Assembly: GCA_050943735.1 (NCBI GenBank)
Contig: JBMNPT010000005.1
Location: forward strand, 4,209 to 68,208
From: Eubacteriales bacterium
Lineage (GTDB): Bacteria > Bacillota > Clostridia > Oscillospirales > RGIG577
Length of the DNA stretch: 64,000 bases
Reading direction: 5' to 3'
This document shows positions 7,362 through 56,744 of this stretch, piece after piece (position 1 is the first letter of the stretch; every line of letters begins with the position of its first letter). The notes beneath the pieces were generated by a model. That model saw nothing but the letters and a program-made list of their open reading frames with translations. It made no database searches and was not told where the DNA came from. Position numbers and translations under genes: made by a program.

Positions 7362-8075
7362 ATGATTCCCGTGAGCCTGACTCAACATTCGGGACGCAGC
7401 ATTGGCGACAGCATTTATGCCGCTTTGCGGGAAAATATCATTTTGCTGCAGATGCGTCCTGGCGAAAGCATCAATATCAAGGAAATTTCAGAGCAGCTGG
7501 GAGTCAGCCGCAGTCCTGTACGGGACGCGGTGATGAAACTGGCCAAAGAAGGACTGGTGGATATCATCCCCCAAAAAGGTACCAGTGTGTCCCGCATTGA
7601 TTTGCACCGGGTGGAAGAAGAACGCTTCATGCGTGAAAGCATGGAAGAAAAGGCATTAGAGCTGTTTGGTAGCCAGAAAACCTTGCTGCAGATGGAAAAA
7701 TTGCGCTACATTTTGCGCTTGCAGAAGGAAAGTCTGGACGCCCAGCAGTTTGCCCGTTTTTTGGAATTGGATGACCAGTTCCACGGTGTATTTTTTGAAG
7801 GGGCGGACCGACCCATGTGCTGGGAGATTTATCAGAGTATGTCCGGCCATTACCGCCGAATTCGTCTGATGACTTTGTGGGACAGCCGTATTGTGAGCAA
7901 TGCCATTGACCAGCACTGGGAAATGCTGCAGCTGCTGGAAGAACGCAAGCTGGATCAGCTGCCTGGCTTGCTGCGCAATCACTGCCGGAAACTGGATATA
8001 CAGGAGTTGGACCTGTTTGAAAGTTATCCGGAATACTTTCAGAAGGAAGAACTGGAAGCATACATGAAAAAATGA
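7362..8075 (+). CDS. GntR family (FadR/FCD-type) transcriptional regulator
   Basis: N-terminal winged HTH (ISEQLGVSRSPVRDAVMKLAKEGLV) plus a helical FCD-like C-terminal domain. It sits between uxuA and uxuB. Confidence 0.88.
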   Translation: MIPVSLTQHSGRSIGDSIYAALRENIILLQMRPGESINIKEISEQLGVSRSPVRDAVMKLAKEGLVDIIPQKGTSVSRIDLHRVEEERFMRESMEEKALELFGSQKTLLQMEKLRYILRLQKESLDAQQFARFLELDDQFHGVFFEGADRPMCWEIYQSMSGHYRRIRLMTLWDSRIVSNAIDQHWEMLQLLEERKLDQLPGLLRNHCRKLDIQELDLFESYPEYFQKEELEAYMKK

Positions 8076-8087
8076 GGTGGGAAAGAG

Positions 8088-9701
8088 ATGAAGTTAAACA
8101 GAAAGGCACTGGCCGACTCTGCGGTCTGGGAAAAGGCAGGGTTCCGCCTGCCCCAGTATGACGTGGAGCGGATGGTGGAAGAAACCCGCAAAAATCCCAT
8201 GTGGCTGCACTTTGGCGCGGGCAACATTTTCCGTGCGTTTGTGGCCAATGTACAGCAGGAAGTGCTCAACGCAGGCAAGTCCGACCGGGGCATCATTGTG
8301 GCTGGAGGTCAGAATCACACCATCATTGACAAGGTGTACCGGGCCTATGACAATCTGTGCGCTCTGGTGACGCTGAAAGCTGATGGCAGCATCGAAAAAA
8401 CAGTGGTGGCCAGCCTGGCCGAGTCGGTGAAGGTGGATGACACCGATCCTTCCGAGTGGGGCCGGCTGCAGGAGATTTTCCGCAGTCCCTCTCTGCAGAT
8501 GATCAGCTTTACTATCACCGAAAAGGGCTATAGTTTGGTGGACGCGCAGGGCAACTATCAGGCTGCGGTGGCAGCCGATCTGGAAGCCGGCCCCAAGGCT
8601 CCTCAGAGTTATCTGGGACGTCTGGTGGCGCTGCTGTATGAACGGTACCTGGCTGGTCAGCTGCCTGTTTCTCTGGTGAGCATGGACAACTGCTCTCACA
8701 ACGGCACCAAACTGCATGATGCCGTGGTGACCTTTGCCCAGAGCTGGGAGGAAAAAGGTCTGGCGCAAAAGGGATTTGTGGCATATCTCAACGACCGCAG
8801 CAAAGTGGGATTCCCCTGGACTATGATCGACAAGATTACCCCCCGGCCTGACGCTTCGGTGAAGGCCATGCTGGCAGAGGTGGGCTTTGAGGATCTGGAG
8901 TGCGACGTGGCCAACAAGGACGTATATGCGCCCTTTGTCAACGCGGAAGAAGCCCAGTATCTGGTCATTGAGGACTGGTTCCCTGCCGGCCGTCCCCAGC
9001 TGGAAGCAGGCGGTGTGATGTTCACCGACGGCCCCACTGTGGACAAGGTGGAAAAAATGAAGGTGTGCACCTGTCTCAACCCGCTGCACACTGCATTGGC
9101 GGTGTATGGCTGTCTGTTGGGGTATGATCTCATCTCCAAGGAGATGCAGGATCCCCAGCTCAAGCGCATGGTGGAGATCATCGGATACCAGGAAGGTCTG
9201 CCTGTGGTGGTGAATCCCGGGATTCTGGACCCCAAGGAGTTCATTGACACTGTGCTGCAGGTCCGGATTCCCAATCCCTTTATGCCGGATACGCCTCAGA
9301 GAATTGCCACCGATACCTCTCAAAAATTGGGCATTCGTTTTGGCGAAACCATTAAGGCATACGCGGCAGATCCCAATCGGGATGTGAGCAGTCTGCGGAT
9401 GATTCCGCTGGTACAGGCGGGATGGTGCCGGTATCTGCTGGGAGTGGACGATGAAGGTAATGCCTTTACTCCTTCTTCCGATCCGCTGCTGGAGGAAAAT
9501 CAGAAGTATCTGGCTGGCATTAAGCTGGGAGATACGGGTGATTTCCACAATCAGCTACAGCCCATTTTGTCCAATGCCGCCATCTTTGGCGTAGATTTGT
9601 ATGAGGTGGGTCTGGGCAAAAAGGTAGAGGACTATTTTGCCGAGTTGGTAGCCGGAAAGGGTGCCATTCGGGCGACACTGAAGAAATATGTGGGCTGTTG
9701 A
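8088..9701 (+). CDS. uxuB: mannitol dehydrogenase family oxidoreductase (fructuronate reductase / D-mannonate oxidoreductase)
   Basis: 537 aa with the LHFGAGNIFRAF Rossmann motif, in uxu context. Confidence 0.88.
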   Translation: MKLNRKALADSAVWEKAGFRLPQYDVERMVEETRKNPMWLHFGAGNIFRAFVANVQQEVLNAGKSDRGIIVAGGQNHTIIDKVYRAYDNLCALVTLKADGSIEKTVVASLAESVKVDDTDPSEWGRLQEIFRSPSLQMISFTITEKGYSLVDAQGNYQAAVAADLEAGPKAPQSYLGRLVALLYERYLAGQLPVSLVSMDNCSHNGTKLHDAVVTFAQSWEEKGLAQKGFVAYLNDRSKVGFPWTMIDKITPRPDASVKAMLAEVGFEDLECDVANKDVYAPFVNAEEAQYLVIEDWFPAGRPQLEAGGVMFTDGPTVDKVEKMKVCTCLNPLHTALAVYGCLLGYDLISKEMQDPQLKRMVEIIGYQEGLPVVVNPGILDPKEFIDTVLQVRIPNPFMPDTPQRIATDTSQKLGIRFGETIKAYAADPNRDVSSLRMIPLVQAGWCRYLLGVDDEGNAFTPSSDPLLEENQKYLAGIKLGDTGDFHNQLQPILSNAAIFGVDLYEVGLGKKVEDYFAELVAGKGAIRATLKKYVGC

Positions 9702-43593: not shown

Positions 43594-43977
43594 ATGAATG
43601 CGGCACAGAAAATCGCGTATTTGAGTCAGTACAAACAAATAGATTTGGAAATTGATCGCATGATTCATGAAGTGGATGTGTGGAAAAAACGGTTGGAGCC
43701 TTTTTCTACAGAGGAGGAAAAAGTGAGGGTGATCCATTTACTGCGGCACATCAATCGGGAGATTGACCGATTGGTGGATCTGCGTGAAGCCATGGAACGC
43801 TCCATCCGTACTGTGGATGACAAAACTCTGCAGACCTTGTTGCGCTGCCGTTACATAGACGGGCTTACCTGGGAAGCGTTGGCGGAACAGATGGTCTATT
43901 CCTATCAGCATGTGTTTCGTCTGCACAAAAAAGCCATTGATCTTCTGGAACTGGACCAAGATGTGATACAATGCTAG
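43594..43977 (+). CDS. sigma-70 region-4-like HTH protein, phage late-gene activator candidate (positional analogue of PBSX Xpf)
   Basis: 127 aa. The C-terminal LLRCRYIDGLTWEALAEQMVYSYQHVFRLHKKAIDLL is a sigma region 4 HTH pattern. The N-terminus is a coiled coil. It is the first gene of the cluster. Confidence 0.7.
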   Translation: MNAAQKIAYLSQYKQIDLEIDRMIHEVDVWKKRLEPFSTEEEKVRVIHLLRHINREIDRLVDLREAMERSIRTVDDKTLQTLLRCRYIDGLTWEALAEQMVYSYQHVFRLHKKAIDLLELDQDVIQC

Positions 43978-44050
43978 TCCCTCTCTGTGCTACGGTATGT
44001 TTGCGGTCGGGAAACCGGCTGGCAATTCAATCACAGAGAGGAGAAGAGGA

Positions 44051-44218
44051 ATGAAAAAACTGGCAGATCAAAAGGAAATCCAGGCCTTTTGGACCTCTGT
44101 GATGCGCAGTGAGGAGGCAACCATCGCCGAACGCTTCAAAGCCTCTGAACTGCTGGCAAAAAACAGGGAAGAGGAGGCTGTGGATCTGAAACTCAAATGG
44201 TTCAAGGAAGACGAGTGA
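44051..44218 (+). CDS. 55-aa terminase small-subunit-like protein (C-terminal module only)
   Basis: It lies immediately upstream of, and overlaps, the terminase large subunit gene. ERFKASELLAKNREEE resembles the RLKALELLGK motif of small terminases. RBS GAGGAGAAGAGGA. Confidence 0.4.
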   Translation: MKKLADQKEIQAFWTSVMRSEEATIAERFKASELLAKNREEEAVDLKLKWFKEDE

Positions 44219-45444
44219 CAAAAGCACGTACTCTGCGGCGCGAGGTTTGCAATTCTTGGGTGTACAGTCAGGTGGATGACTACTCCCATCGGATTGAGGT
44301 GTACTGCGGAGGTGCGGGAAGTGGTAAGTCCTACGGCGCCATGCAGAAAATGCTTCTCAAAGCGCTCAACTACCGGCGGCGTGTGCTGGTGGTGCGCAAG
44401 GTGGCGGACACTCTGCGGGCCAGCGTATTTGAACTGCTTCTCCAATTGCTGCGGGACAGCGGTCTGTACGAAGTGGCCCGCATCCGGCGCAGCGAAATGC
44501 GTGTGACTCTGCCCGGCGGCAGTGAGTTCCTGTTCCGGGGGATTGACGACCCCGAAAAGGTGAAGTCCATCACTGGACTCACCGACATTGTCATTGAGGA
44601 AGCTACGGAACTGTCCCGGGAGGATTTCATTCAGCTCAATTTACGTCTGCGCTGCCTGGAGCCCTTTCCTCAGATTTATGTGCTGTTCAATCCCATCAGC
44701 AAAGCCAACTGGGTGTACGATCGATTTATTCTCCATCCACCCGAAAATTGCAGGCTGGTCCGCACTACCTGGAAGGACAACCGGTTCCTACCCGAAGAAT
44801 ATGGCAGGGAGCTGGAGACCATGGCCGAAACAGATCCCGTCAAGTACCGCATTTACGCGCTGGGAGAATTCGCCACGCTGGACCGGCTGGTATTTCCCCA
44901 GGTGGAGGTTCGGGCCATCTCCCCCCAGGAGGTGGAAGGGCTGCCTTTCTTCGGGGGACTGGATTTCGGCTACGTAAACGATCCTACCGCTTTGGTATGG
45001 GGACGGTATGATCGAACCAATCGTCGGATCTTCATTTTGGGGGAGTACTTTGGCAAGGGTATGCTCAATCGGCAGATCGCCGAAAAAATTCAACAGATGG
45101 GACTTTCCAAGGAAATCTGGACTGCCGACAGCAGTGAAATTAAGAGCATCGATGAGCTGCGTTCCCTGGGACTCTCCCGGGTGCGGGCCGCCCGGAAAGG
45201 TCCCGGCAGCGTTCGCTTTGGCCTGAGCTGGTTGGCAGGCAGAAGCCTGATCTTACAGGAGAACTGCCCCCGCTTGCTGGAGGAGTTCGAAAATTACACC
45301 TGGAAAAAAGATCCCCGTTCCGGGGAGTATTGCAATGAACCCATTGACAGCTGGAACCATGGCATCGATGCCCTGCGCTACGGATTGGAGCATCAGATGC
45401 GAGGCGGTGGCATGGAAGTGCTGAAATGGAACAAGGAGGTTTGA
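44197..45444 (+). CDS. terminase large subunit, PBSX/XtmB type
   Basis: Walker A VYCGGAGSGKSYG and Walker B-like LTDIVIEEATE, about 415 aa. An alternative GTG start at 44215 forms a GTGA overlap. Confidence 0.9.
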   Translation: MVQGRRVTKARTLRREVCNSWVYSQVDDYSHRIEVYCGGAGSGKSYGAMQKMLLKALNYRRRVLVVRKVADTLRASVFELLLQLLRDSGLYEVARIRRSEMRVTLPGGSEFLFRGIDDPEKVKSITGLTDIVIEEATELSREDFIQLNLRLRCLEPFPQIYVLFNPISKANWVYDRFILHPPENCRLVRTTWKDNRFLPEEYGRELETMAETDPVKYRIYALGEFATLDRLVFPQVEVRAISPQEVEGLPFFGGLDFGYVNDPTALVWGRYDRTNRRIFILGEYFGKGMLNRQIAEKIQQMGLSKEIWTADSSEIKSIDELRSLGLSRVRAARKGPGSVRFGLSWLAGRSLILQENCPRLLEEFENYTWKKDPRSGEYCNEPIDSWNHGIDALRYGLEHQMRGGGMEVLKWNKEV

Positions 45445-45445
45445 T

Positions 45446-46717
45446 ATGGCATTCACCAATGAGGAAATGGCCAGGACACTGGCCCGGGCGGTGGCCGAAC
45501 AAACTGATTTCGCCCAGCGCTGTCAGGTGGCCAGACGCTATTATCAGAATCGCAACGACATTCTCCACACCGGAGCGGTTCCCCGCTGGCAGACCCAGCC
45601 CAATCCCCTGCGCAACAGCGATGTGCGCATCAGCCACAACTGGCACAGCATTCTGGTCAATCAGAAAACATCCTATCTGTTCAGCTACGCGCCCACTCTG
45701 GATGTGGGAGATCGCAGGCTCAACGCTCGTCTGACCCAGATGCTGGGGGATGGATATGGAAAAATGATGAAGGATCTCTGTGTGGAGGCCAGCAACTGTG
45801 GGGTGGCATGGCTCTTCCTGTGGCTGGATGATGAACGGCAGCTGCAAATGCAGGTGATGGACAGCGAACAGATTGTCCCCATTTATTCGGATGATTTACA
45901 GAAAACCCTCAAGGCTGTCCTTCGTATTTACACCCAGCGGGATGAGGCCGATCAGCCGGTGACTCGATGCGAGCTGTGGGATGAGGAAACTATGCAGACC
46001 GGTCGTTGGAACGGCGGCCAATGGGTGCCTGACAATCAGCAGATCTACTATCATGGTATCGGTCAGATTCCCTTTATTCCCTTCTGGAACAATGGAGAGG
46101 GAACTGGCGACCTGGAGATGTACCAAGGTCTGATTGATCAATACGATCGGGTGGTGAGCGGATTTGCCAACGATCTGGCAGACATTCAGGAGGTGATCTT
46201 CGTCATCCGCAATTACGGAGGCGAGGATTTGGGGACCTTCCTGGGTGAGCTCAAACGGTACAAGGCCATCAAGGTGGACAGCGACGGCGGTAACAGCGGT
46301 GTGGACACCATGCAGATTCAGATTCCGGTGGAGGCTCGTATGGAGTTCCTGGAACTGCTCAAAAAGCAGATCTTTATCTCCGGTCATGGGGTATTCCCCG
46401 CTCAGGACAATCTGCCCAACACCAGCGGGGTGGCTTTGCAGTACATGTACAGTCTGCTGGAGATCAAAGCGGGCTTGCTGGAAGTGGAGTTCCGTCAGAG
46501 TCTGGCCCAACTGGCCCGTCTGCTGCTGCGGCACATGGGCTGCCGCAAAGAACTGACCATCCGTCAGACCTGGATCCGCAATGCCATCCGCAATGAGACG
46601 GAACTGGCGCAGATCTGTGCGGACAGCAGTCAGCTGCTCAGCCGTGAAACCATTCTGCGGCATCATCCCTGGGTGGAAGATCCACAGGAAGAGATGGAGT
46701 CGGACGGTCAGGAATGA
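45446..46717 (+). CDS. portal protein, SPP1 Gp6-like
   Basis: 423 aa. ARRYYQNRNDILH...LRNSDVRISHNWHSILVNQKTSYLF matches the Gp6-family N-terminal pattern. It follows the terminase gene. Confidence 0.85.
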   Translation: MAFTNEEMARTLARAVAEQTDFAQRCQVARRYYQNRNDILHTGAVPRWQTQPNPLRNSDVRISHNWHSILVNQKTSYLFSYAPTLDVGDRRLNARLTQMLGDGYGKMMKDLCVEASNCGVAWLFLWLDDERQLQMQVMDSEQIVPIYSDDLQKTLKAVLRIYTQRDEADQPVTRCELWDEETMQTGRWNGGQWVPDNQQIYYHGIGQIPFIPFWNNGEGTGDLEMYQGLIDQYDRVVSGFANDLADIQEVIFVIRNYGGEDLGTFLGELKRYKAIKVDSDGGNSGVDTMQIQIPVEARMEFLELLKKQIFISGHGVFPAQDNLPNTSGVALQYMYSLLEIKAGLLEVEFRQSLAQLARLLLRHMGCRKELTIRQTWIRNAIRNETELAQICADSSQLLSRETILRHHPWVEDPQEEMESDGQE

Positions 46718-46771
46718 ACATGTGGTGAGGGGAGGATCCCGGGTGTGTGGTGGGAAACAAGGAGGAATACC

Positions 46772-47215
46772 ATGGAACAGAATAACTTGTCTGCTGCCGC
46801 TGTACTGGCCCAGATTGTACAGCTGATGCAGCAATATGCGGGGATGCAGTCGGCACCAGCCGCTGGTATGCCCCAGAGCACTGGCGGAGATGATCCGCTG
46901 ACCCGTCTGCAAGAGGAAAACAGACAGCTGCAATCCCGTCTGCAGCTCAGCCAGCAGGATATGCTGCTGGAACGGGCTCTGCTGAAAGCAGGCTGCCGCA
47001 ATACCACTGCGGCCAAAGCTTTGGTACAGCCTCAGTGGCTGGAAGGAGAGCAGGCTTTGCAGCCTGAGGAGATTGTACAGGCTTTGATGGAAGAGGCCCC
47101 CTATTTGTTTGAAGAGCCTCAGCCTCTGGGCTATCGTCCTGTGGCCGGTCAGGGTCAGGACTCGGAAGAGGCTCTGCGGGAAATGATTCGCAAAGGTTTG
47201 AGAGGAGAGATGTGA
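46772..47215 (+). CDS. capsid scaffolding protein
   Basis: About 147 aa, helical and coiled coil (LQEENRQLQSRLQLSQQDMLLERALL). It sits between the portal and the major capsid. RBS AAGGAGG. Confidence 0.65.
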   Translation: MEQNNLSAAAVLAQIVQLMQQYAGMQSAPAAGMPQSTGGDDPLTRLQEENRQLQSRLQLSQQDMLLERALLKAGCRNTTAAKALVQPQWLEGEQALQPEEIVQALMEEAPYLFEEPQPLGYRPVAGQGQDSEEALREMIRKGLRGEM

Positions 47216-47216
47216 G

Positions 47217-48128
47217 ATGGCATTTAACACACTGGAATTTGCAAAGGTATTTCAGAAGGAACTGGACAAGCTGGTGGTGGCACAGTGCACCAGCGGCTGG
47301 ATGGAAAGCAACGCCGGTATGATTCAGTACAGCGGCGGTGATGAAATCAAAATTCCCATGCTGACTGTGGATGGTCTGGCGGATTATGATCGGGAAGATG
47401 GCTTTACCCGCGGTGCAGTCAATCTGAGCTTCCAGACCCTGAAGCTCAGCCAGGACAGAGGCAGAAGTTTTCAGATCGACGCCATGGATGTGGATGAAAC
47501 CAGCTTTGGCGCCAGCGTGAGCAATATTGTGGGAGAGTTTCAGCGCAGCCGCGTAGTACCTGAGATTGACAGCTATCGTTACAGCCGCATTGCTACGCTG
47601 TGCAGTGCAGACCATGCCACTACTTATACGGCGGATGCTTCTACCATTCTGACAACGCTGCGGTCCGATATTGAAAACATCTACGAAAAGGCCGGTGAAA
47701 TCGATCTGGTGATCACCCTGTCTTCCGCCGCAGCCAATCTGCTGGAAGGCAGCAGTGAATTCAACGCCATGGTGGACGCCGGTGATTTCAAGAGTGGAGA
47801 ATACTCCTGCCGCGTACGTTATTTCAATGGCAATCCCATTGTACGTGTCCCCAGTGCTCGTATGAAATCGGCCTATACCTTCTATGATGGTGTGACCGAA
47901 GGACAGACCGCCGGCGGTTTTGTGCCCGCCCCAGAAGCCAAGCAGATCAACTGGATCATCAGCAGCCGCACCGCTCCCATTGCAGTATCCAAAACCGATC
48001 AGGTGCGGATTTTCGATCCCCTGCACAACCAGAGCATGAACGCCTGGAAGGTGGATTACCGCAAGTACCATGATCTCTTTGTACCCACCAACAAGCTGGA
48101 TGAAATGTGGGTCAACATGGAGGGGTAA
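47217..48128 (+). CDS. major capsid protein (XkdG/YqbE-like)
   Basis: 303 aa, assigned by position and sequence style (MAFNTLEFAKVFQKELDK...). Confidence 0.8.
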   Translation: MAFNTLEFAKVFQKELDKLVVAQCTSGWMESNAGMIQYSGGDEIKIPMLTVDGLADYDREDGFTRGAVNLSFQTLKLSQDRGRSFQIDAMDVDETSFGASVSNIVGEFQRSRVVPEIDSYRYSRIATLCSADHATTYTADASTILTTLRSDIENIYEKAGEIDLVITLSSAAANLLEGSSEFNAMVDAGDFKSGEYSCRVRYFNGNPIVRVPSARMKSAYTFYDGVTEGQTAGGFVPAPEAKQINWIISSRTAPIAVSKTDQVRIFDPLHNQSMNAWKVDYRKYHDLFVPTNKLDEMWVNMEG

Positions 48129-48130
48129 TC

Positions 48131-48424
48131 ATGGATATGGAAGTCCTGGCACAGCGCCTCCTGCAGCGGGAACCGGCACTGGAAACCAGGGAGACCGCTC
48201 TGGAACGCCTGGAAGAGGCGGCCCAGCGGATTCGAAATTATACCCATCTGGATGAGGTGCCGGATGAACTGGAAGGGGTACTGCTCTCCATGGCACAGCG
48301 CCTGGAGGAAGAGGGCGTGGAAGCCATTTACGAAGGGGACACCAAGGTGCAGTACGCTCATACAGAGCCGGAAGCTCTATATTACTCCCAACTCAACCGG
48401 TTCCGAAAGAGGTGCGGACCATGA
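48131..48424 (+). CDS. head-tail connector protein (gp6-like/YqbG-like)
   Basis: 97 aa and helical. It is the first small ORF after the capsid gene. Confidence 0.6.
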   Translation: MDMEVLAQRLLQREPALETRETALERLEEAAQRIRNYTHLDEVPDELEGVLLSMAQRLEEEGVEAIYEGDTKVQYAHTEPEALYYSQLNRFRKRCGP

Positions 48425-48777
48425 CCAGTCGGATTCTACAGCGGCTGATGAATCAACGAGGAGACATCTGGCGCGGTGAAAAACGGGTGGAAAATGGTGT
48501 GCAATTTGTGGAATACCAACTGCTGCAGAGTGGCGTACCCTGCCGGGTATCCCAGATTGGCACTGGGCGTACCATCCTGAAAAAACCTCAGGGAGAGGAA
48601 CTCTCTGAAATTGAGCAGGAGCTCAAAGGCTTTTTTCCATGGGACGCAGATGTACAGAGTGGCGATCGGCTGGTGGTGACCCTGAACAAAACCCAGCACA
48701 TTCTGGAGGTGGGTGAGGTTTTTGTATACCAAAACTCCCACCGGGAGTGTAGACTGAGCCGTTTGCAGACGGTATGA
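48421..48777 (+). CDS. head closure / head-tail adaptor protein
   Basis: 118 aa with an ATGA overlap with the preceding ORF. Beta-rich pattern typical of SPP1 gp16-like proteins. Confidence 0.6.
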   Translation: MTSRILQRLMNQRGDIWRGEKRVENGVQFVEYQLLQSGVPCRVSQIGTGRTILKKPQGEELSEIEQELKGFFPWDADVQSGDRLVVTLNKTQHILEVGEVFVYQNSHRECRLSRLQTV

Positions 48778-48791
48778 AAGGAGAGGGTGAA

Positions 48792-49211
48792 ATGGAACAG
48801 CAAATTCGGCAGGCACTGGTTAAAGCACTGGGTGATGCCCTGCCCCAGTGCCCTCTTCACACCGAGCGGATGCCTCAGCATGGAATTCGAGACGGGCTGT
48901 GGATCTATCCAGCGGGGCTGGGTCTGGAAGGACGCATTGGCTGTCAGGAGGCCTGGTCACAATGGGAGATTCGCTATCTGCCGCCGATGGAAACACCCAG
49001 ACAAACCATGGTCGAACGACTCCGCCAAGTGGTGGAAGCTGTACAGACTTTGCAGCTGGACGACGGGCCCCTGCGGCCTGTCATCCAGCAGGCAGAGTGC
49101 GACGGTTCCATGGCAGTGGTGCTTTTGCGTGTGAGATGCAGGGTGCGCATTGAACAATCTTCTCCCATGATGCGCAAATTCACCTGGGAGATGGAAATGG
49201 AGGGAAATTGA
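48792..49211 (+). CDS. tail-completion/neck protein candidate
   Basis: 139 aa with RBS GGAGAGGG. It is the last ORF before the sheath gene. Function is assigned by position only. Confidence 0.5.
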   Translation: MEQQIRQALVKALGDALPQCPLHTERMPQHGIRDGLWIYPAGLGLEGRIGCQEAWSQWEIRYLPPMETPRQTMVERLRQVVEAVQTLQLDDGPLRPVIQQAECDGSMAVVLLRVRCRVRIEQSSPMMRKFTWEMEMEGN

Positions 49212-50495
49212 GTGAACAATACGGGAAATAAAACGTTGCCCGGCGTTTATGTGGATTTTATCAGCAGCCGCCCGCTCACCATTCAGGTGGGCAGTCAGGG
49301 GACTGTACTGCTGCCCATGGCGCTGGATTGGGGCGACAAGGGAAAGGTCACCGAAGTGGTGGCCGGAGATGATACACGTCTCTCTCTGGGATACAGCATG
49401 CAGGAGATTCTGCCTCTGCGGGAGGCTATGAAAAATGCTGACCGGGTACTGGTGTATAAGCTCAACGGCGGAGAAAAAGCTTCCGCGACACTGGGAAGCG
49501 GAACGGTAACTGCCGCTCTGCCCGGCAGCCGTGGAAATGCACTTTCTCTTCAGGTGACTGGCGAGGAAGCTCCCTTTGTGGTGGATACCTGGCTGGATGG
49601 TGTTCTGATGGACAGCCAGGAAATTTCGGAGTATTCCGAATTTCAGCCCAATGGGCTGGTGGAGATCAATGAGGCAGGCACTCCTGCCAAGGCTTTGGTC
49701 ACCCTTTCCGGCGGTACGGATGAAGAGGAACAGACCACCGACTGGGAGAGCTTTTTGCCATCCGCCCAGACCCTTTTCTTTGACACAATGGCTTGTATGA
49801 GTGACGAAGAATCGGTGAAGGAACAGGTGGTGTCTTTTGTACGGCTGATGCGGGAACAGGAAGGCAAAAAGATTCAGGCAGTGATGGCCAACAAGGCGGC
49901 CGATTACGAGGGTATCATCTCGGTACAGGGTGGCGTGGTACTGGAGGGGGATGAAATTCTCCCTGCGGAAACCGTATGCGCTTATATTGCCGGCATGACC
50001 GCGGGCGCTGCCATCAATGAGAGCTGCACCCATCACATTTACCAGGGTGCGGTGGATGTGACCAGTCGGATGACCCGCGCTCAAAAAGAAGAGGCAGTTG
50101 GTCAGGGTCACATGATTCTGGATGTGGACGCCGCCGGTCAGGTGTATGTGGTCTATGATATCAATACCCTGCGCTCCGGTCTGCAGGTTGACTTCCGTAA
50201 AAACCGGGTGCTGCGGGTACTGGATGGGATTCATCAGGATGTGAAGTCTCTCTTTGAGGGCAGCTATCTGGGTAAGGTGAGCAATGACCCCAACGGCCGC
50301 AGTCTGCTGCGGGGCAGTTTGGTGGAATACTTTGGCAAGCTGGAACAGATGGGCGCCATCACCGGCTTCCAGAGCGATGACATTTCGGTAGAGCCCGGCA
50401 GCGATTCCGACAGTGTGATCATTGGCATTGCTGTGGCTCCGGTGGACAGTTGTGAAAAATTCTACATCACCGTACAGGTGAACCAGGAGGTGTAA
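49212..50495 (+). CDS. contractile tail sheath protein (XkdK-like)
   Basis: 427 aa. The N-terminal LPGVYVDF is typical of sheath proteins. GTG start after RBS GGAGGG. Confidence 0.88.
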   Translation: MNNTGNKTLPGVYVDFISSRPLTIQVGSQGTVLLPMALDWGDKGKVTEVVAGDDTRLSLGYSMQEILPLREAMKNADRVLVYKLNGGEKASATLGSGTVTAALPGSRGNALSLQVTGEEAPFVVDTWLDGVLMDSQEISEYSEFQPNGLVEINEAGTPAKALVTLSGGTDEEEQTTDWESFLPSAQTLFFDTMACMSDEESVKEQVVSFVRLMREQEGKKIQAVMANKAADYEGIISVQGGVVLEGDEILPAETVCAYIAGMTAGAAINESCTHHIYQGAVDVTSRMTRAQKEEAVGQGHMILDVDAAGQVYVVYDINTLRSGLQVDFRKNRVLRVLDGIHQDVKSLFEGSYLGKVSNDPNGRSLLRGSLVEYFGKLEQMGAITGFQSDDISVEPGSDSDSVIIGIAVAPVDSCEKFYITVQVNQEV

Positions 50496-50496
50496 T

Positions 50497-50970
50497 ATGG
50501 CCAATTATGTGAGATTGCGGGATACCATCTCCTCCAAGGAGGGACGGGCCTACATCACCATCAATGGGAAAAATAGAGAACTGTTTGAAATCAGCCGCCT
50601 CAAGGCTTCTTTGCAGTACAAAATTCAAAAACGTCAGATGCTGGGCCATCGTATGGTGCAGCACAAGGTGGTAGGAGCTGAGGGCACCGGTGAAATGACA
50701 ATGTATTTCATGAACAGCGAAATGCTACAGCTGGCCCGTCAGTACATCAAAGAGGGCAACCCGGGCTCTCTCAAACTGCAGGTGGTCAATGAGGATAGCG
50801 CCAGCAGTGTGGGCCGTCAAGAAGTGATGCTGCTCAACGTAATGCTGGAACAGGTGCCCATCACCTGTCTGGATGACAGCTCGGACGATCCGGTAACCAT
50901 CAGCTGCAGCTTCACCTTTGACGATATCGAAGTGCTGGAGAGCTTTGCTCTGCCGGAAAACTATCGATAA
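50497..50970 (+). CDS. tail tube protein (XkdM-like)
   Basis: 157 aa, directly after the sheath gene. Sequence includes EGRAYITINGKNRELFEISRLKA... Confidence 0.85.
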   Translation: MANYVRLRDTISSKEGRAYITINGKNRELFEISRLKASLQYKIQKRQMLGHRMVQHKVVGAEGTGEMTMYFMNSEMLQLARQYIKEGNPGSLKLQVVNEDSASSVGRQEVMLLNVMLEQVPITCLDDSSDDPVTISCSFTFDDIEVLESFALPENYR

Positions 50971-50982
50971 CAGGTGCGGACG

Positions 50983-51492
50983 ATGGAACCGGAGGTTTAC
51001 GCCGCACGTTGGGCGGAAGAGTCAGAACCGTTGGCGGAAGAACTGATACAGCTTCAGGAGATGGAAGATTCCATTCAGCAACAGGAATCATGGATGGAAC
51101 CGGTGCAGGATGTGGGGGCACAGGTCGCCGGGGAGGAGAGCCTTCAGAGTGCCGAATCCCAGGAAATGCTTGCTGCGGTATCGGAGATTTCTGTGGATGG
51201 AGAAGAAACTACAGGGAGTGGAGAATGGAGCCCTCAAAATCCGCTCCTATTTACGGAGTCTGCTCCGGCAGCCTCGACTACACAGCAGCTTTGGACTCAA
51301 ACACTACTCCAGGCAGCCGCTTGGAATACTCTACGCCAGGAGTCCAGTCAGCAGGTGGTGAACAACATCGCGCCCAACATTGTGATCGAAATGGGCAATC
51401 CGGTGGCAGGTACCACTCCCCAGGCTGTGGCTGAGCAGATTCGCCGGACCTTGCGGGAAGAAATGCTGTGCTGTGCAGAGGGGGTGTACTAA
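50983..51492 (+). CDS. 169-aa acidic E/Q/S-rich protein in the tape-measure position (possible miniature tape measure)
   Basis: Intact ORF with SD-like AGGTG 6 nt upstream and a TAATG overlap with the next gene. The C-terminal NIAPNIVIEMGNPVAGTTPQAVAEQIRRTLREEM resembles, from memory, tape-measure C-termini. Function is uncertain. Confidence 0.5.
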   Translation: MEPEVYAARWAEESEPLAEELIQLQEMEDSIQQQESWMEPVQDVGAQVAGEESLQSAESQEMLAAVSEISVDGEETTGSGEWSPQNPLLFTESAPAASTTQQLWTQTLLQAAAWNTLRQESSQQVVNNIAPNIVIEMGNPVAGTTPQAVAEQIRRTLREEMLCCAEGVY

Positions 51493-52082
51493 TGGAATAT
51501 TGTGTGTATTTGACAGAGGGAGCCAGACGGTATCCACTGCCGGTCAATCCTCAGAATATACGGTCCAGTTGGGAGAGTGGTGCCCGGCAGACCGCGGTAT
51601 TGGGGATTGGACAGGTGGTACTGCCCGGAGAAGAAACCCTGGAGCATTTTACCTTTACCGTTCCGCTGGACAATGAGTGGGTGTCGCGGCTGCGCCGGTG
51701 GCGTTCGCAGGGTACTGTACTCACTATGCAGGCGATAGGCAAACAGCTTTACCTGCAGCGGGAAGTGATTCTGTATCGAATGACTCAGACCCAGCTGGCT
51801 GGCCGGGAAGAGGAGTGTGAAGTGGAATTGGAATGGATGGAATACCGGGGGTACCGCAAAGCGGAGCTGCTGCGTAAGCAGTGGCAGGAGGAAGGAAGTC
51901 TTTCTGCCCCGGTATCCTCCGGCGCTACCTATACGGTGGTCAAAGGGGATTGTCTGTGGCGCATTGCGCAGCGAATGCTGGGGGATGGCAGCCGGTATGG
52001 GGAAATTTATCAGCTCAATCAGGACATCATCACCAATCCCAATTTGATCTATCCGGGGCAAGTTCTGCGGCTGCCCGGCTGA
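51492..52082 (+). CDS. LysM-domain tail protein (XkdP-like)
   Basis: The N-terminal YPLPVNPQNI...FTFTVPL resembles XkdP-type tail proteins. The C-terminal LysM is TYTVVKGDCLWRIAQR...IYPGQVLRLPG. Confidence 0.8.
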   Translation: MEYCVYLTEGARRYPLPVNPQNIRSSWESGARQTAVLGIGQVVLPGEETLEHFTFTVPLDNEWVSRLRRWRSQGTVLTMQAIGKQLYLQREVILYRMTQTQLAGREEECEVELEWMEYRGYRKAELLRKQWQEEGSLSAPVSSGATYTVVKGDCLWRIAQRMLGDGSRYGEIYQLNQDIITNPNLIYPGQVLRLPG

Positions 52083-52098
52083 CAGAAAGGAGAACTTC

Positions 52099-52587
52099 AT
52101 GGGAACTTTGGAAGGATTTTTACACCCGGAGGAAATGGGACCCGTTCGGGTCCCCCTTTCTCCCCGGTTTCGGGATGAACAGGGAAATCCCATTCAATGG
52201 GAGCTGCGTCCTGTATCTGCCCGGGAAAACGAAGCGCTGATCCGCCGGCACACCCGACAGGATACCCAGGGAAACTGGAGATTGGATCGAGCAGCCTATC
52301 GCATGGCCTTTGCAGCCTGCGGGGTGGGGTGTCCCGACTTGGAGGATGCCCAGCTGCAGCAGCGTTACCACGCGCTGGGACGGGAAGATCTGTTGGGGCG
52401 GATGCTGCTGGCGGGAGAATTTGCGGCTCTCTATGAAAAAGTGAGCCGTATCAGCGGCTTTGGACACTCTCTGGAAGATGAGGTGGACGAAGCAAAAAAA
52501 GAATCCGGCACGGTGAGTGGGAATTCGCCTGCGCCCACTATGCCCTTCAGCGGCATCACCTGCTGCCCGGACAGTTCGCAGCCCTGA
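52099..52587 (+). CDS. XkdN-like tail assembly chaperone (short, zero-frame form)
   Basis: SPRFRDEQGNPIQWELRPVSARENEAL...LLGRMLLAGEFAALYEKVSRISGF is an XkdN-family pattern. It contains an A7 slippery site at 52494-52500. Confidence 0.75.
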   Translation: MGTLEGFLHPEEMGPVRVPLSPRFRDEQGNPIQWELRPVSARENEALIRRHTRQDTQGNWRLDRAAYRMAFAACGVGCPDLEDAQLQQRYHALGREDLLGRMLLAGEFAALYEKVSRISGFGHSLEDEVDEAKKESGTVSGNSPAPTMPFSGITCCPDSSQP

Positions 52588-52643
52588 GCAGGCGGGAAAA
52601 AGCATTCATCTGGGCTTCGGCCCTGGTGGAAAAGGAGGGATGA
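52494..52643 (+). other. predicted -1 programmed frameshift site (A_AAA_AAA) and 47-codon -1 frame extension of the chaperone
   Basis: The zero frame reads GCA AAA AAA GAA. The -1 frame from 52500 reads RIRHGEWEFACAHYALQRHHLLPGQFAALSRREKAFIWASALVEKEG and stops at 52641-52643, 1 nt before the next ATG. Confidence 0.55.
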
Positions 52644-52644
52644 C

Positions 52645-53598
52645 ATGCAGCTGTGGCTGGAAAACAGACAAACCGGTCAGATGGTGGAAATCACCGGCGC
52701 TTGTGTGGAAATTCAGCTGTGTCATAAGCGCAACAATGGAGCCTCCGTTTTGGATGTGACCTGGCTGTGTGAAGAGGTGTTCTTTGAAAATGGATGCACC
52801 ATTCGGCTCACCGATGGACAGCAATGTGCTTTTCACGGGAGGCTTTTCAGATGGAGCCGATCCAGCGACGGATTGGTTCACCTGCACGCGTACGATCAGC
52901 TGCGCTATCTAAAAGCCAAGGACACCATGCTTTTGCAAGGCCGTTCCCTGGCCAGCCTATTGCGGGAAATGTGCCGGGTCTTTCAGCTGAAAGCGGGCAC
53001 TATGGAAGATCCGCCGGGCTTGGTACAGGATGAAATGCTGGTGGGTCAAACGCTGCTGGACATTCTGTATCGCAAAATCGCAGAAGTACAGCGCCTCACC
53101 GGCAAAGCGTATATTCTGCGGGACGAGGACGGAGCCATCTGTCTTCGGGCGGAGGATTCTCTGCATCTGCCGCTGTTGCTGGCGGATGAGACCACCTGCC
53201 TTTCCTATGAGGTGGAGAGAGATATTGACCGGGATACCTGCAATCGGGTGGTACTGGCTCACGAAAGCATCGTGTTTGGCATGCGCAAGGTCTATGAGAC
53301 AGCGGACGCCCAGCAGACCCAGCAGTATGGGGTTTTGCAGTATTATCAGCGGGTGAATCAGAATCTCACGTCAGCTCAAATCCGCGCCATCGGTGAAAAT
53401 CTGCTGGCGGAAAAAAAGGGAGAGAGATACCGCATATCCCTGTCGGCGATCTCTGATCTCTCTGTACAGGGTGGGAGTGTGATTGGCGTTACACTGGATG
53501 GCCTGGGACAGGGATTGTATCGGGTTTTGCAGGTCACCCATCGGCTGCAGAGCGGACGGGAGACCATGGAATTGGAGGTGGAAAATATTGCTGGATGA
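52645..53598 (+). CDS. XkdQ/YqbQ-like baseplate hub (gpD-like) protein
   Basis: 317 aa, assigned by position and sequence pattern (LHAYDQLRYLKAKDT..., GKAYILRDEDGAICL). Confidence 0.75.
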   Translation: MQLWLENRQTGQMVEITGACVEIQLCHKRNNGASVLDVTWLCEEVFFENGCTIRLTDGQQCAFHGRLFRWSRSSDGLVHLHAYDQLRYLKAKDTMLLQGRSLASLLREMCRVFQLKAGTMEDPPGLVQDEMLVGQTLLDILYRKIAEVQRLTGKAYILRDEDGAICLRAEDSLHLPLLLADETTCLSYEVERDIDRDTCNRVVLAHESIVFGMRKVYETADAQQTQQYGVLQYYQRVNQNLTSAQIRAIGENLLAEKKGERYRISLSAISDLSVQGGSVIGVTLDGLGQGLYRVLQVTHRLQSGRETMELEVENIAG

Positions 53599-53851
53599 AA
53601 TTAAGGAAATCGCCCAGCGTGTGGTGGACAGCAACACCTTTTTACAGCTGGGAACCGGACGGGTGCGTTCGGTCAGCCCCTTGACGGTGGAATTGACCTC
53701 CAATGGGCTGGTGCTGCCCAATGTGATGTTGATGGTAGGAGCCTCTCTGAGTGAGAGCGACCGCTTTCAAAATCTGGAAGGCGGAGAGCAGCTGTTGCTG
53801 CTGGGCCCCGCTTGCGGCGGGAAATTTGCAGTATTGGACGTGATGCTATGA
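53588..53851 (+). CDS. XkdR-like small baseplate protein (DUF2577-like)
   Basis: 87 aa from TTG 53588, which lies 7 nt after GGAGGTG. Sequence LLDEIKEIAQRVVDSN...GRVRSVSPLTVEL. Confidence 0.65.
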   Translation: MLDEIKEIAQRVVDSNTFLQLGTGRVRSVSPLTVELTSNGLVLPNVMLMVGASLSESDRFQNLEGGEQLLLLGPACGGKFAVLDVML

Positions 53852-54237
53852 CCGGCGCAGGATATGAAACCATTTGGGATAAAGCCCTGGAAGGCCCCAG
53901 CCGCACCTTCTGTATTTCTCTGGAAAACGGAAGGATGCAGGGAATGTGTGACGGCGTGGAAAGCGTACGTCAGGCGGTGTGGAAATGCCTGGCCACCCAG
54001 CGGGGAGAGCATTTGATCTATGGCCCCTATTACGGGCTGGATCGAAATGCACTGGTACAGGCGGATCCCGCCCAATTGCAGGCTGCCGCGGAACAGGCTG
54101 TCCGCAGCGCTCTATTGCGGGACCCCAGAGTCTGGTCGGTGGATCGGGTACAGGCCCTCCGTCAGGGTGACAGCCTTTCCCTGACGGTGGAAGTGACCAC
54201 CCGGTTTGGTACCGTCCAGTTGACAGAGGAGGTGTGA
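53848..54237 (+). CDS. XkdS-like baseplate protein (DUF2634-like, gpW/gp25-like)
   Basis: 129 aa with an ATGA overlap. VRQAVWKCLATQRGEHLIYGPYYGL is typical of this family. Confidence 0.7.
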   Translation: MTGAGYETIWDKALEGPSRTFCISLENGRMQGMCDGVESVRQAVWKCLATQRGEHLIYGPYYGLDRNALVQADPAQLQAAAEQAVRSALLRDPRVWSVDRVQALRQGDSLSLTVEVTTRFGTVQLTEEV

Positions 54238-54238
54238 G

Positions 54239-55315
54239 ATGTTTGAAGAAATGACCTTTGATAAATTGATGGAGGGAATGCTTTCCCATGTGAGTGACAC
54301 CCTGGACAAACGGGAAGGCAGTGTGGTGTACGACATGCTTTCCCCTATGGCGGCAGAACTTGCCGGGCATTACAGCCAGCTGGGAGCGGCACTGGAACTG
54401 CTGTTCTGGGAAACCTCCTCCGGCATTTGGTTGGATCGCTTGGGAGAACAGTTTGGCATTCCCCGCCGTCAGGCTACCAATGCAGTGTACCGGGGTGTTT
54501 TTACCGATCAGGAGGACTTGCCTGCTCAGGTGGAAACCGGCAGTCGGTTTCGCTGGGAGGAATATACTTTCGCGGTAGAGGATTCTCTGGGAGAGGGAAA
54601 GTATACGCTGGTTTGTGAGCAACCGGGAAGCGGTGCCAATGCGGCTACCGGAACCATTCTCCCGGTGCTCAATCTGCCCTCTCTGCAGTCGGCAGTGCTG
54701 GAACAGCTGCTGGAAGAAGGAACTGACCAGGAAAGCGATGAACAGTACAGGGCCCGGGCGATGGAGCTGCTGGCGCGTCCCGCCTTTGCGGGCAATATAT
54801 CTGCCTATCAGGAAGAGACGTTGTCCATTGGGGGAGTGGGATGTGTCAAGGTTTTCCCCGTCTTTGATGGAGGCGGTACAGTGGGGCTGGTGATTGGAAA
54901 CGCCCAGGGACGTGCAGTGGATGAAATGGTACTGCAAAAAGTACAGGAGCATTATGCGCTGGAGGGAGAACAGAGCGTCACTCCCATTGGCCATCAGGTG
55001 ACTGTCAAAAGCTGTGTGGATCGGACTGTACCAGTGGAGCTGGCGGTGGATTTGGTGCCGGAGGCTGACTGGAGCAGTGTACAGTCACAGGTTCAGAATC
55101 GGGTGGCCCAATGGATGAGTCAGATTGATTTTGAGGAAGAGAGAGTGTTTGTAGCGCGGCTGATGGCGGCAGTACTGGAGGTGGACGGTGTGGCTGACGT
55201 CCCCATGGCTCAGGTGAAGCTGGATGGCAAAAATGCCAATCTGGTGCTGCAAAAAGATATGGAAACTTTTGAAACACCGGTCTGCGGAACAGTGACGGTA
55301 AGGCAGGTGAGCTGA
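54239..55315 (+). CDS. baseplate J-like protein (XkdT-like)
   Basis: 358 aa. The N-terminus is typical of baseplate J (MLSHVSDTLDKREGSVVYDMLSPMAAEL). Confidence 0.85.
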   Translation: MFEEMTFDKLMEGMLSHVSDTLDKREGSVVYDMLSPMAAELAGHYSQLGAALELLFWETSSGIWLDRLGEQFGIPRRQATNAVYRGVFTDQEDLPAQVETGSRFRWEEYTFAVEDSLGEGKYTLVCEQPGSGANAATGTILPVLNLPSLQSAVLEQLLEEGTDQESDEQYRARAMELLARPAFAGNISAYQEETLSIGGVGCVKVFPVFDGGGTVGLVIGNAQGRAVDEMVLQKVQEHYALEGEQSVTPIGHQVTVKSCVDRTVPVELAVDLVPEADWSSVQSQVQNRVAQWMSQIDFEEERVFVARLMAAVLEVDGVADVPMAQVKLDGKNANLVLQKDMETFETPVCGTVTVRQVS

Positions 55316-55316
55316 T

Positions 55317-55874
55317 TTGTGGTGTGAAGAGGAAATTCGCCTGCAGGAACATTTGCCTCAGTGGTATGCCGGGATCCGTGAGGCGGCGCTGATTCAGCAG
55401 GGAGCCCAGACAGAACTGGAAAACTTCCGCGTGACATTGCACGATGGTTTGCGGACCATCTGTACCTTGGCTCTGGAACCTACTGTTTTGGAGATTTACC
55501 GACGCATGTTTCAGCTGGAACCACAGAGCCATCCGGAAAAGCAGATGGATATTATTCGTTCCTGTTTTCAAAGCCGGCTGCCCATCAATCAGAATCGGGT
55601 GGAGCAGGTGGGCATGACTCTGATGGGGGAAAACAGTCAACTCCGATTGGATATCGACAGAGAAAAATATATCTGTCATGCCAAGTATAAGGCCGATATG
55701 TCCCAAAACAGAGAAGAGACCATTTACGCGAAGCTGCGGGCTATGATCCCAGCCAATATGATTCTTTCTCTGGCCTATGATTACGTGGAATGGGGACAAA
55801 TTCAGCACATCACCTGGCAGCAGGCAGCCACCCTCACCTGGGATGGACTGCGGCAGCAAGGGGATTCACTATAG
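55317..55874 (+). CDS. XkdU/YmfQ-like tail protein (DUF2313-like)
   Basis: 185 aa, TTG start. LPQWYAGIREAALIQQGAQTELENF is a family-typical N-terminus. It is the last gene of the cluster. Confidence 0.7.
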   Translation: MWCEEEIRLQEHLPQWYAGIREAALIQQGAQTELENFRVTLHDGLRTICTLALEPTVLEIYRRMFQLEPQSHPEKQMDIIRSCFQSRLPINQNRVEQVGMTLMGENSQLRLDIDREKYICHAKYKADMSQNREETIYAKLRAMIPANMILSLAYDYVEWGQIQHITWQQAATLTWDGLRQQGDSL

Positions 55875-56012: not shown

Positions 56013-56744
56013 ATGGAAAAAATCAACATCAGAGGCATTGCCTTTGACAATGTGACGCTGGAACAAGCGGTGAATCGAGTTCTTGCTTTCACTGAAACAC
56101 CCGGCGCAAAAATGGTGGTCACCCCCAATTCCGAGATTGTGCAAATCTGTCTGGAGGACCCCCAGGTGGCGCAGGTGGTGTCCCGGGGAGATCTGATCAT
56201 CCCCGATGGCATTGGTGTGGTGTACGCTTCCAAAATATTGGGAACACCTCTCAAGCAGAAGGTGGCGGGGTTTGACTTGGCTGCCGCTCTGTTGCCTGAG
56301 TTGGAAAAGCGGGGCATTGGACTGTTTTTGCTGGGCAGCGCTCCGGGAGTAGCACAGGAGGCCGCCAGACGGATGCAGCAGCAGTATCCGGAGCTTTTGA
56401 TTTCCGGGACCCATGACGGCTATTTCCAGGAGGATGAGCCGGTGATCGAACAGATCAATGAGAGTGGTGCGCAGGTGCTGTTTGTGTGTCTGGGCGCCCC
56501 CAAACAGGAAAAATGGATGGAGGCAAACCGGGACAAGCTGCAGGTTCGGGCCATGCTGGGACTGGGCGGCAGTTTGGATGTGTTTGCGGGCAATGTGAAA
56601 CGGGCACCCGATATTTATATCAAGCTGGGACTGGAGTGGCTGTACCGGCTGATGAAGGAGCCATGGCGATACAAGAGAATGGCGAAACTGCCCCAGTTCC
56701 TGTTGGGAACCATAGCCTGTAAGATGAAGGGAAAAGGTGGATAA
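56013..56744 (+). CDS. WecB/TagA/CpsF family glycosyltransferase
   Basis: 243 aa. VTPNSEIV...LGAPKQEKWM are family-typical motifs. Confidence 0.88.
   Translation: MEKINIRGIAFDNVTLEQAVNRVLAFTETPGAKMVVTPNSEIVQICLEDPQVAQVVSRGDLIIPDGIGVVYASKILGTPLKQKVAGFDLAAALLPELEKRGIGLFLLGSAPGVAQEAARRMQQQYPELLISGTHDGYFQEDEPVIEQINESGAQVLFVCLGAPKQEKWMEANRDKLQVRAMLGLGGSLDVFAGNVKRAPDIYIKLGLEWLYRLMKEPWRYKRMAKLPQFLLGTIACKMKGKGG

Follow-up and report, generated by a model that had tools for sequence, protein, structure and literature searches.

A predicted -1 frameshift site in an XkdN-like tail assembly chaperone gene beside a probable miniature tape measure

Does a run of seven adenines in a phage-like tail gene make some ribosomes change frame, so that one gene yields two proteins? 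The gene in question lies in a 64,000-nucleotide stretch of the genome of a Eubacteriales bacterium (assembly GCA_050943735.1, contig JBMNPT010000005.1, positions 4,209 to 68,208; this whole stretch is called the window, and its numbering is used throughout). By its profile matches it encodes an XkdN-like tail assembly chaperone, and the run, at 52494-52500 on the forward (+) strand, which carries all the tail genes and sites located below, reads as the heptamer A_AAA_AAA. Frameshifting of the G/GT type and its roles, including the conserved tail-chaperone frameshift of tailed double-stranded DNA phages (Xu, Hendrix and Duda 2004), have been reviewed (PMC5009743). On the comparative evidence set out here, the run is very probably a functional programmed -1 frameshift (recoding) site of this type, from which the chaperone would be extended by a conserved peptide of 47 residues.

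The slip site and its reading frames

The zero-frame open reading frame (ORF) of the chaperone gene occupies 52099-52587 and encodes a protein of 162 amino acids (aa), here called the G form. It matches the Pfam family PF08890 (Phage_TAC_5) with E = 1.8e-32 and 112.5 bits, against a cut-off of 27. All of the profile (positions 1-135 of 135) aligns to residues 4-133, and the match ends at the heptamer. The ORF also matches the XkdN-like family PHROG 389 and, with E = 3e-7, PDB entry 3klu, the YqbN protein of B. subtilis, which is the sole relative with a solved structure and whose native sequence ends ...EEAAKN. Judged by these matches, the gene is an XkdN-like tail assembly chaperone. The source record of the window names only the 162-aa zero-frame product.

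Direct reading of the DNA bears out the layout that an earlier sequence-only reading of the window had described. In the zero frame, positions 52492-52503 read GCA AAA AAA GAA, which places the A7 run in the X_XXY_YYZ register of a slippery heptamer. A ribosome staying in this frame would go on for another 28 codons (ESGTVSGNSPAPTMPFSGITCCPDSSQP; ESGTV...SSQP) to a stop at 52585-52587, and this tail (52501-52587) overlaps the coding region of the alternative product. One base back, the -1 frame is open for 47 codons after the slip (RIRHGEWEFACAHYALQRHHLLPGQFAALSRREKAFIWASALVEKEG) and ends at a TGA at 52641-52643; the extension (52500-52643) is here called the T part. Its stop codon lies 1 nt before the ATG (52645) of an XkdQ/YQBQ-like baseplate gene (52645-53598; Pfam PF24032 YQBQ, E = 7.5e-65), and the ribosome-binding site of that gene, AAGGAGG (52632-52638), is embedded in the end of the T coding region. 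The predicted GT protein would thus have 134 + 47 = 181 aa, with its junction between ...DEAKK and RIRHGEW... in the segment ...VDEAKKRIRHGEW..., again as first proposed. The first ATG, GTG or TTG in the -1 frame comes only 5 codons before the stop. Since this frame has no usable start codon, the conserved T peptide could only be made as an extension of G.

How often would such an arrangement arise by chance? The window (52% GC) holds 13 A-runs of at least 7 and, in a rough gene set, 124 in-frame X_XXY_YYZ heptamers, and at least 47 open -1 codons follow downstream at 18% of in-frame positions. With these counts, chance by itself would produce a heptamer followed by an open -1 frame many times over, and statistics from the window alone were rejected as evidence in themselves, not being significant. 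The case therefore rests on the identity of the gene and on comparison with its relatives. A second in-frame lysine heptamer, A_AAA_AAG, lies at 53411-53417 inside the XkdQ-like gene, where the -1 frame stays open for only 12 codons. Most likely it arose by chance, and it illustrates how common such heptamers are in the window.

Conservation of the slip site and of the -1 peptide

The T part is recognisable as a conserved protein segment. A profile was built from 15 homologous -1 peptides, with the window and its closest relative (locus L004) excluded, and was compared with the 1,393 six-frame stop-to-stop segments of the window. The sole match was the -1 frame segment at 52482-52640, with E = 5.8e-16; the runner-up had E = 2.2. 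In L004, which shares the unusual gene order of the window, the G part is 52% identical to that of the window, the slip site is GTA AAA AAC and the zero-frame tail has 5 codons. The -1 peptides of the two are 64% identical (30 of 47 residues), above the figure for the G part.

The substitutions between the window and L004 follow the -1 frame. Nucleotide differences at the first, second and third positions of the -1 codons number 15/10/26. Counted as codon changes in that frame, 17 are synonymous and 16 non-synonymous; read in the zero frame, the region gives only 3 synonymous changes against 29 non-synonymous ones, and stops besides. Arginine is encoded by the first -1 codon in both, as AGA in the window and as CGC in L004. 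Selection thus acts on the -1 frame, beginning with the last base of the heptamer. The comparative sequence evidence shows the slip site and the -1 peptide to be conserved and the peptide to be under purifying selection.

The protein sequences of the family point the same way. An exhaustive HMMER search yielded 648 relatives, from which the best 150 with a pairwise identity of at most 50% were taken. Exactly K-N or K-K forms the C-terminus of 112 of these 150, and 26 more have 1-2 extra residues (138 of the 150 altogether). Before this lysine stands A, V, I, L, K or S, and each of these can be encoded by a codon with A in third place. A conserved A_AAA_AAC/A site with a stop behind it would be expected to leave termini of just this kind. 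Four longer relatives (P0009, P0028, P0050 and P0124) carry an in-frame C-terminal domain that resembles the -1 peptide of the window, and the predicted 181-aa product is colinear with one of them, P0028, across the junction (E = 4e-29). The A-run is absent from the in-frame fusions P0028 and P0050. With G and T in one continuous frame in all four, these lineages would make the long form only. Queried with the fused protein, a homologue search found nothing beyond the protein of the window itself.

At the DNA level, 26 related loci (L001-L026) were collected from viral contigs, GenBank phages, GTDB genomes, metagenomes and public assemblies. Near-identical pairs were collapsed (L001/L002, L006/L007 and L016/L017), and L023 was set aside because its contig ends before the slip site, leaving 22 informative loci (L001, L003-L006, L008-L016, L018-L022 and L024-L026). 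Twelve loci (L005-L013 and L024-L026) are unbiased with respect to the slip site, since they were retrieved by N-terminal sequence only. An in-frame A_AAA_AAC at the homologous position, followed by a homologous -1 ORF of 52-74 codons, is found in 21 of the 22, so that a search among orthologues for loss of the A-run or for stops in the -1 frame found both features kept in all but one. The identity of the gene with PF08890 and this wide retention support the proposal that the site is a G/GT-type frameshift of a tail chaperone. The -1 ORFs of the relatives share the motif [FY]A[HY][FY]-C/A-L...LP..F..L..RE+AF. After the heptamer, the zero frame is closed within 0-1 codons in 20 of the 21 heptamer loci, after 5 codons in L004 and after 28 in the window, and the zero-frame tail had rightly been taken for non-conserved filler. 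Across these loci the family consensus site is A_AAA_AAC, usually with an immediate stop, of which the A_AAA_AAA and late stop of the window are a minority variant.

The exception is L022 (positions 7941-8860 of the locus), in a metagenome-assembled genome (MAG) of an Oscillospiraceae bacterium (CAZSBD010000003.1). Its gene order is the canonical one, with tube, chaperone, a 190-aa tape-measure-like ORF, LysM and XkdQ. The chaperone ends EEKEAK-stop, and neither a slippery heptamer nor a T-like -1 ORF was found at the locus. From its sequence, the frameshift appears to have been lost there.

The proposed mechanism and its competitors

What would the two products do? Most ribosomes would stay in the zero frame and complete the 162-aa G form, while a minority would slip one base back on A_AAA_AAA, where the two lysine tRNAs can re-pair on AAA, and would add the T part up to the TGA at 52641-52643 to give the 181-aa GT. 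In lambda, gpG and the G part of gpGT bind the tape measure, the T part recruits the tail tube protein, and the ratio is ~30:1 (PMC5009743). Frameshifting of 6-7% has been measured in a tail-chaperone cluster (PMC3711429). By analogy with lambda, the shared G part would coat the tape measure (here probably a 172-aa miniature), the T part would recruit tail tube subunits, and both G and GT would leave the finished tail. A recent structure paper on phiCD508 (PMC11948020) lists an XkdN-like gp57 and, next to it, a small gp58 without an assigned function. Neither was detected in virions, which agrees, if indirectly, with the absence of both forms from the finished particle. We infer the ribosomal nature of the slippage, along with its efficiency, the binding partners and the role of any stimulators.

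The likeness to lambda lies in two products from one start, an extension without a start of its own and a chaperone encoded in the tail module. It does not extend to the slip site, A_AAA_AAA in the window, or to the protein sequence, since similarity to gpG is undetectable. The module of the window is moreover that of a contractile tail, the gene stands after the tape measure and LysM genes, and the extension is only 47 aa long. Homologous in both the G and the T domain are the XkdN/YqbN-like chaperones of PBSX-type elements and of Firmicute myophages (phiC2, CDMH1, phiCDKH02, EJ-1/MismyG and phi OH2), whose slip position is identical, after ...EA-K. These relatives have A_AAA_AAC, a stop 0-1 codons on, a T part that is 52-74 aa long and ends in a basic tail, and, encoded next, a tape measure of ~750-870 aa. 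The window, on the other hand, has A7, a stop 28 codons on, a T part of 47 aa that lacks the basic tail, a probable tape measure of 172 aa and a chaperone gene that is displaced. The trimmed T part is common to the window/L004 clade, where it is 47-52 aa long and lacks the lysine/arginine-rich tail of the other relatives.

The slip site may also be compared with that of E. coli dnaX, where the gamma and tau proteins arise by way of A_AAA_AAG, an upstream Shine-Dalgarno-like element and a downstream hairpin. In both genes a lysine-codon heptamer is preceded by GCA. The window has a Shine-Dalgarno-like GAGG (52480-52483) 10 nt upstream of the heptamer and a local hairpin (52507-52535) beginning 6 nt past it, both of which are candidate stimulators. 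The 10-nt spacing matches that of dnaX. The proteins and the purpose are unrelated, however, the shift extending the chaperone but truncating the dnaX product, and in the XkdN-like family neither conservation nor significance could be demonstrated for either flanking element.

GAGG at the identical 10-nt spacing occurs in the window and in L001, L003, L004, L008 and L012. As a family-wide feature, an upstream element of this kind was rejected, a Shine-Dalgarno-like motif lying at 7-14 nt in only 9 of 22 sequences. In many relatives stable hairpins are found 4-9 nt downstream of the heptamer, with z between -2.5 and -5.1 in nine sequences and a mean of about -2.3 over 18 (the window and 17 relatives). 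These individual hairpins, although common, have no common register. A fixed-register helix of 11 bp, defined by hand (columns 14-24 with 59-69), was likewise rejected, as its pairing (52.5%) was no better than in shuffled sequences (53.2%) and showed no covariation.

Several observations weigh against a working frameshift in the window. A downstream stimulatory hairpin or pseudoknot, which the sequence-only reading had suggested seeking, did not emerge: the hairpin of the window does not exceed shuffled sequence in stability (z = -0.75 for 60 nt and -1.6 for 65 nt), and RNAalifold on the 18 post-heptamer sequences gave no consensus structure. In E. coli, A_AAA_AAA is reported to be much less shift-prone than A_AAA_AAG (PMC5009743). 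The window also lacks the zero-frame stop next to the heptamer that 20 of the 21 heptamer relatives have, its T part is shorter than theirs and without the basic C-terminal tail, and the chaperone gene lies outside the canonical interval between tube and tape measure. (Tube-chaperone-tape-measure synteny is a context feature for finding such genes and is not part of the frameshift mechanism.) Finally, the cluster around L022, also with a short tape measure, does without slip site and T part, so the T part is not indispensable in every shortened system.

Could the polymerase slip rather than the ribosome? If RNA polymerase added one A on the A7 run, normal translation would produce a near-identical GT with one extra lysine at the junction. 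The window does have seven consecutive A's, and slippage-prone A/T runs are a known alternative route to such a product (PMC5009743). In 21 relatives, however, the run is A6 followed by C, a shorter homopolymer that is nevertheless a perfect tandem-slippage heptamer. The run also keeps its register with respect to the zero frame, a point of consequence for slippage by the ribosome though not by the polymerase. Efficient transcriptional slippage usually requires longer runs as well, and this further counts against it. Because the family site is A6C in a conserved codon register, transcriptional slippage is improbable as the main route.

It might be supposed instead that the heptamer and the -1 ORF are a decaying relic, inherited from a canonical phage and no longer used in a defective cluster that has lost most of its tape measure. 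The truncated T part, the lost adjacent stop, the want of a significant stimulatory structure and the T-less cluster of L022 would all suit such decay, as would the lack of tail fibre or lysis genes after the cluster. On the other hand, when the window is compared with L004, the -1 peptide is more strongly conserved than the G part and shows an excess of third-position differences and many synonymous changes, which is hardly to be expected of a relic. Nor have any stops accumulated over 47-52 codons in two independent assemblies, and the peptide still matches the T profile at E = 5.8e-16. Decay is very unlikely to account for the site.

An assembly or sequencing error is hardly credible. The source is a MAG in which the A homopolymer could have been miscounted, and in-frame fused homologues exist, so that the true gene might be a continuous G-T fusion like P0028 or P0050; but the equivalent -1 arrangement recurs in L004, which comes from an independent dataset, and in another 20 loci drawn from isolates, phages and metagenomes, and the in-frame fused homologues have no A-run at all. 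That the T region should be a small gene by itself, with a start codon of its own, has next to no likelihood. Several genome annotations imply such a gene through short ORFs in relatives (the 47-aa ORF in L004, phiCDKH02_45, and PHROG families 5646, 20560, 10943 and 28231), but the -1 frame of the window is without ATG, GTG or TTG before its last 5 codons, and the starts called in relatives are non-conserved and would remove some of the conserved part.

The mechanism is the textbook, conserved G/GT recoding of tail chaperones, and its variant features in the window (A7 for A6C, the late zero-frame stop, the trimmed T part and the displaced gene) are minor. A literature search found no paper on a frameshift specifically in XkdN-like chaperones; the 2004 survey lay outside that search, and an earlier description is possible.

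A probable miniature tape measure in a compact cluster

Which client would the chaperone serve? The sequence-only reading had argued that preservation of the slip site meant a functional tail assembly pathway even though the cluster had no conventional tape measure. A long tape measure is indeed absent, but a 172-aa ORF at 50974-51492 is probably a miniature one, so the chaperone has a plausible client. The assignment comes from profile-profile comparison, in which the last 41 residues of the ORF can be aligned along their whole length with the C-terminal ends of tape measures of 750-870 aa from canonical XkdN-type loci (hhalign probability 90%, E = 1.4e-6). The C-terminus of the ORF reads ...NIVIEMGNPVAGTTPQAVAEQIRRTLREEMLCCAEGVY, and its counterpart in the phi OH2 tape measure ...TVQVQTGDIRNEVDVNKLIKKFEESMMNEIARSAEGVYS. 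The ORF lies directly upstream of the LysM gene, which is the position of the tape measure in relatives, and it has homologues at the equivalent position of 208 aa in L004 and 156 aa in L023. A plain hmmsearch of the window with the tape measure C-terminus profile gave nothing significant (E = 7.4), and the ORF has no match in Pfam, PHROG or NCBIfam. (NCBIfam has no match for GT or T either.) As to the pathway, the retained slip site favors a functional one without proving it, as L022 reminds us.

In the window, the ORF is preceded by an XkdM-like tail tube gene (50497-50970; DUF2001, PF09393, E = 3.2e-36) and followed by the XkdP-like LysM tail gene (51468-52082; Pfam LysM, E = 2.3e-11; PHROG 380), which separates it from the chaperone. 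The order tube, miniature tape measure, LysM, chaperone, XkdQ is shared by the window, L004 and L023, whereas all other relatives have tube, chaperone, tape measure, LysM, XkdQ. The chaperone has as its neighbors genes for sheath, tube, LysM and XkdQ-, gp25-, baseplate-J- and XkdU-like proteins, with those for terminase, portal, scaffold and capsid upstream. A mechanically listed ORF at 53483-53851 overlaps the XkdQ-like gene by 116 nt in the +1 frame, and the true start of this gene, which stands in the XkdR position, is probably further downstream.

The whole cluster covers about 12.3 kb (~43594-55874). It opens with a DUF1492/sigma-70-r4-like regulator, goes on with terminase, portal, scaffold, capsid and connector genes, then with those for sheath, tube, miniature tape measure, LysM, chaperone, XkdQ, gp25-like and baseplate J proteins, and closes with the XkdU-like gene. 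The host gene WecG follows directly at 56013, and after it come ORFs that we take for ThyX and Tmk. Genes for tail fibres, lysis or integration were not seen adjoining the cluster, which resembles a gene-transfer-agent-like or PBSX-like defective element.

What, then, does the slip site mean for this family? Its main practical value is for annotation, since GT could be annotated across a large family that includes Firmicute myophages, PBSX-like elements and tailocins. The rule would be to look for an XkdN-like ORF ending ...A-K-N-stop on GCA AAA AAC and, after it, a -1 ORF with the motif given above. In the GenBank records of phiCDKH02, CDMH1, phiC2, phi OH2 and MismyG (L005-L009) the frameshift is unmarked, and the 180-200 nt between chaperone and tape measure are left empty or called hypothetical. 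The chaperone of phiCDKH02 is labelled 'portal protein', and the four PHROG families made up of T-part fragments are all listed as of unknown function.

The frameshift itself was to be expected; of somewhat more note is its retention in a compact head-and-tail cluster that has no fibre genes and whose tape measure is probably a miniature. That the slip site has been kept next to a tape measure shortened about five-fold suggests that GT can do its work without a long one, and raises the possibility of a very short contractile tail. Tentatively, the chaperone might serve a tape measure of only ~170 residues, encoded in a 12-kb head-and-tail cluster that lacks fibre and lysis genes. The particle would then be gene-transfer-agent-like or tailocin-like with a very short contractile tail, the chaperone gene having moved and the T part having been trimmed. 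If this were true, the clade of the window, L004 and L023, together with the T-less L022, would amount to a natural experiment on what G and GT need from the tape measure.

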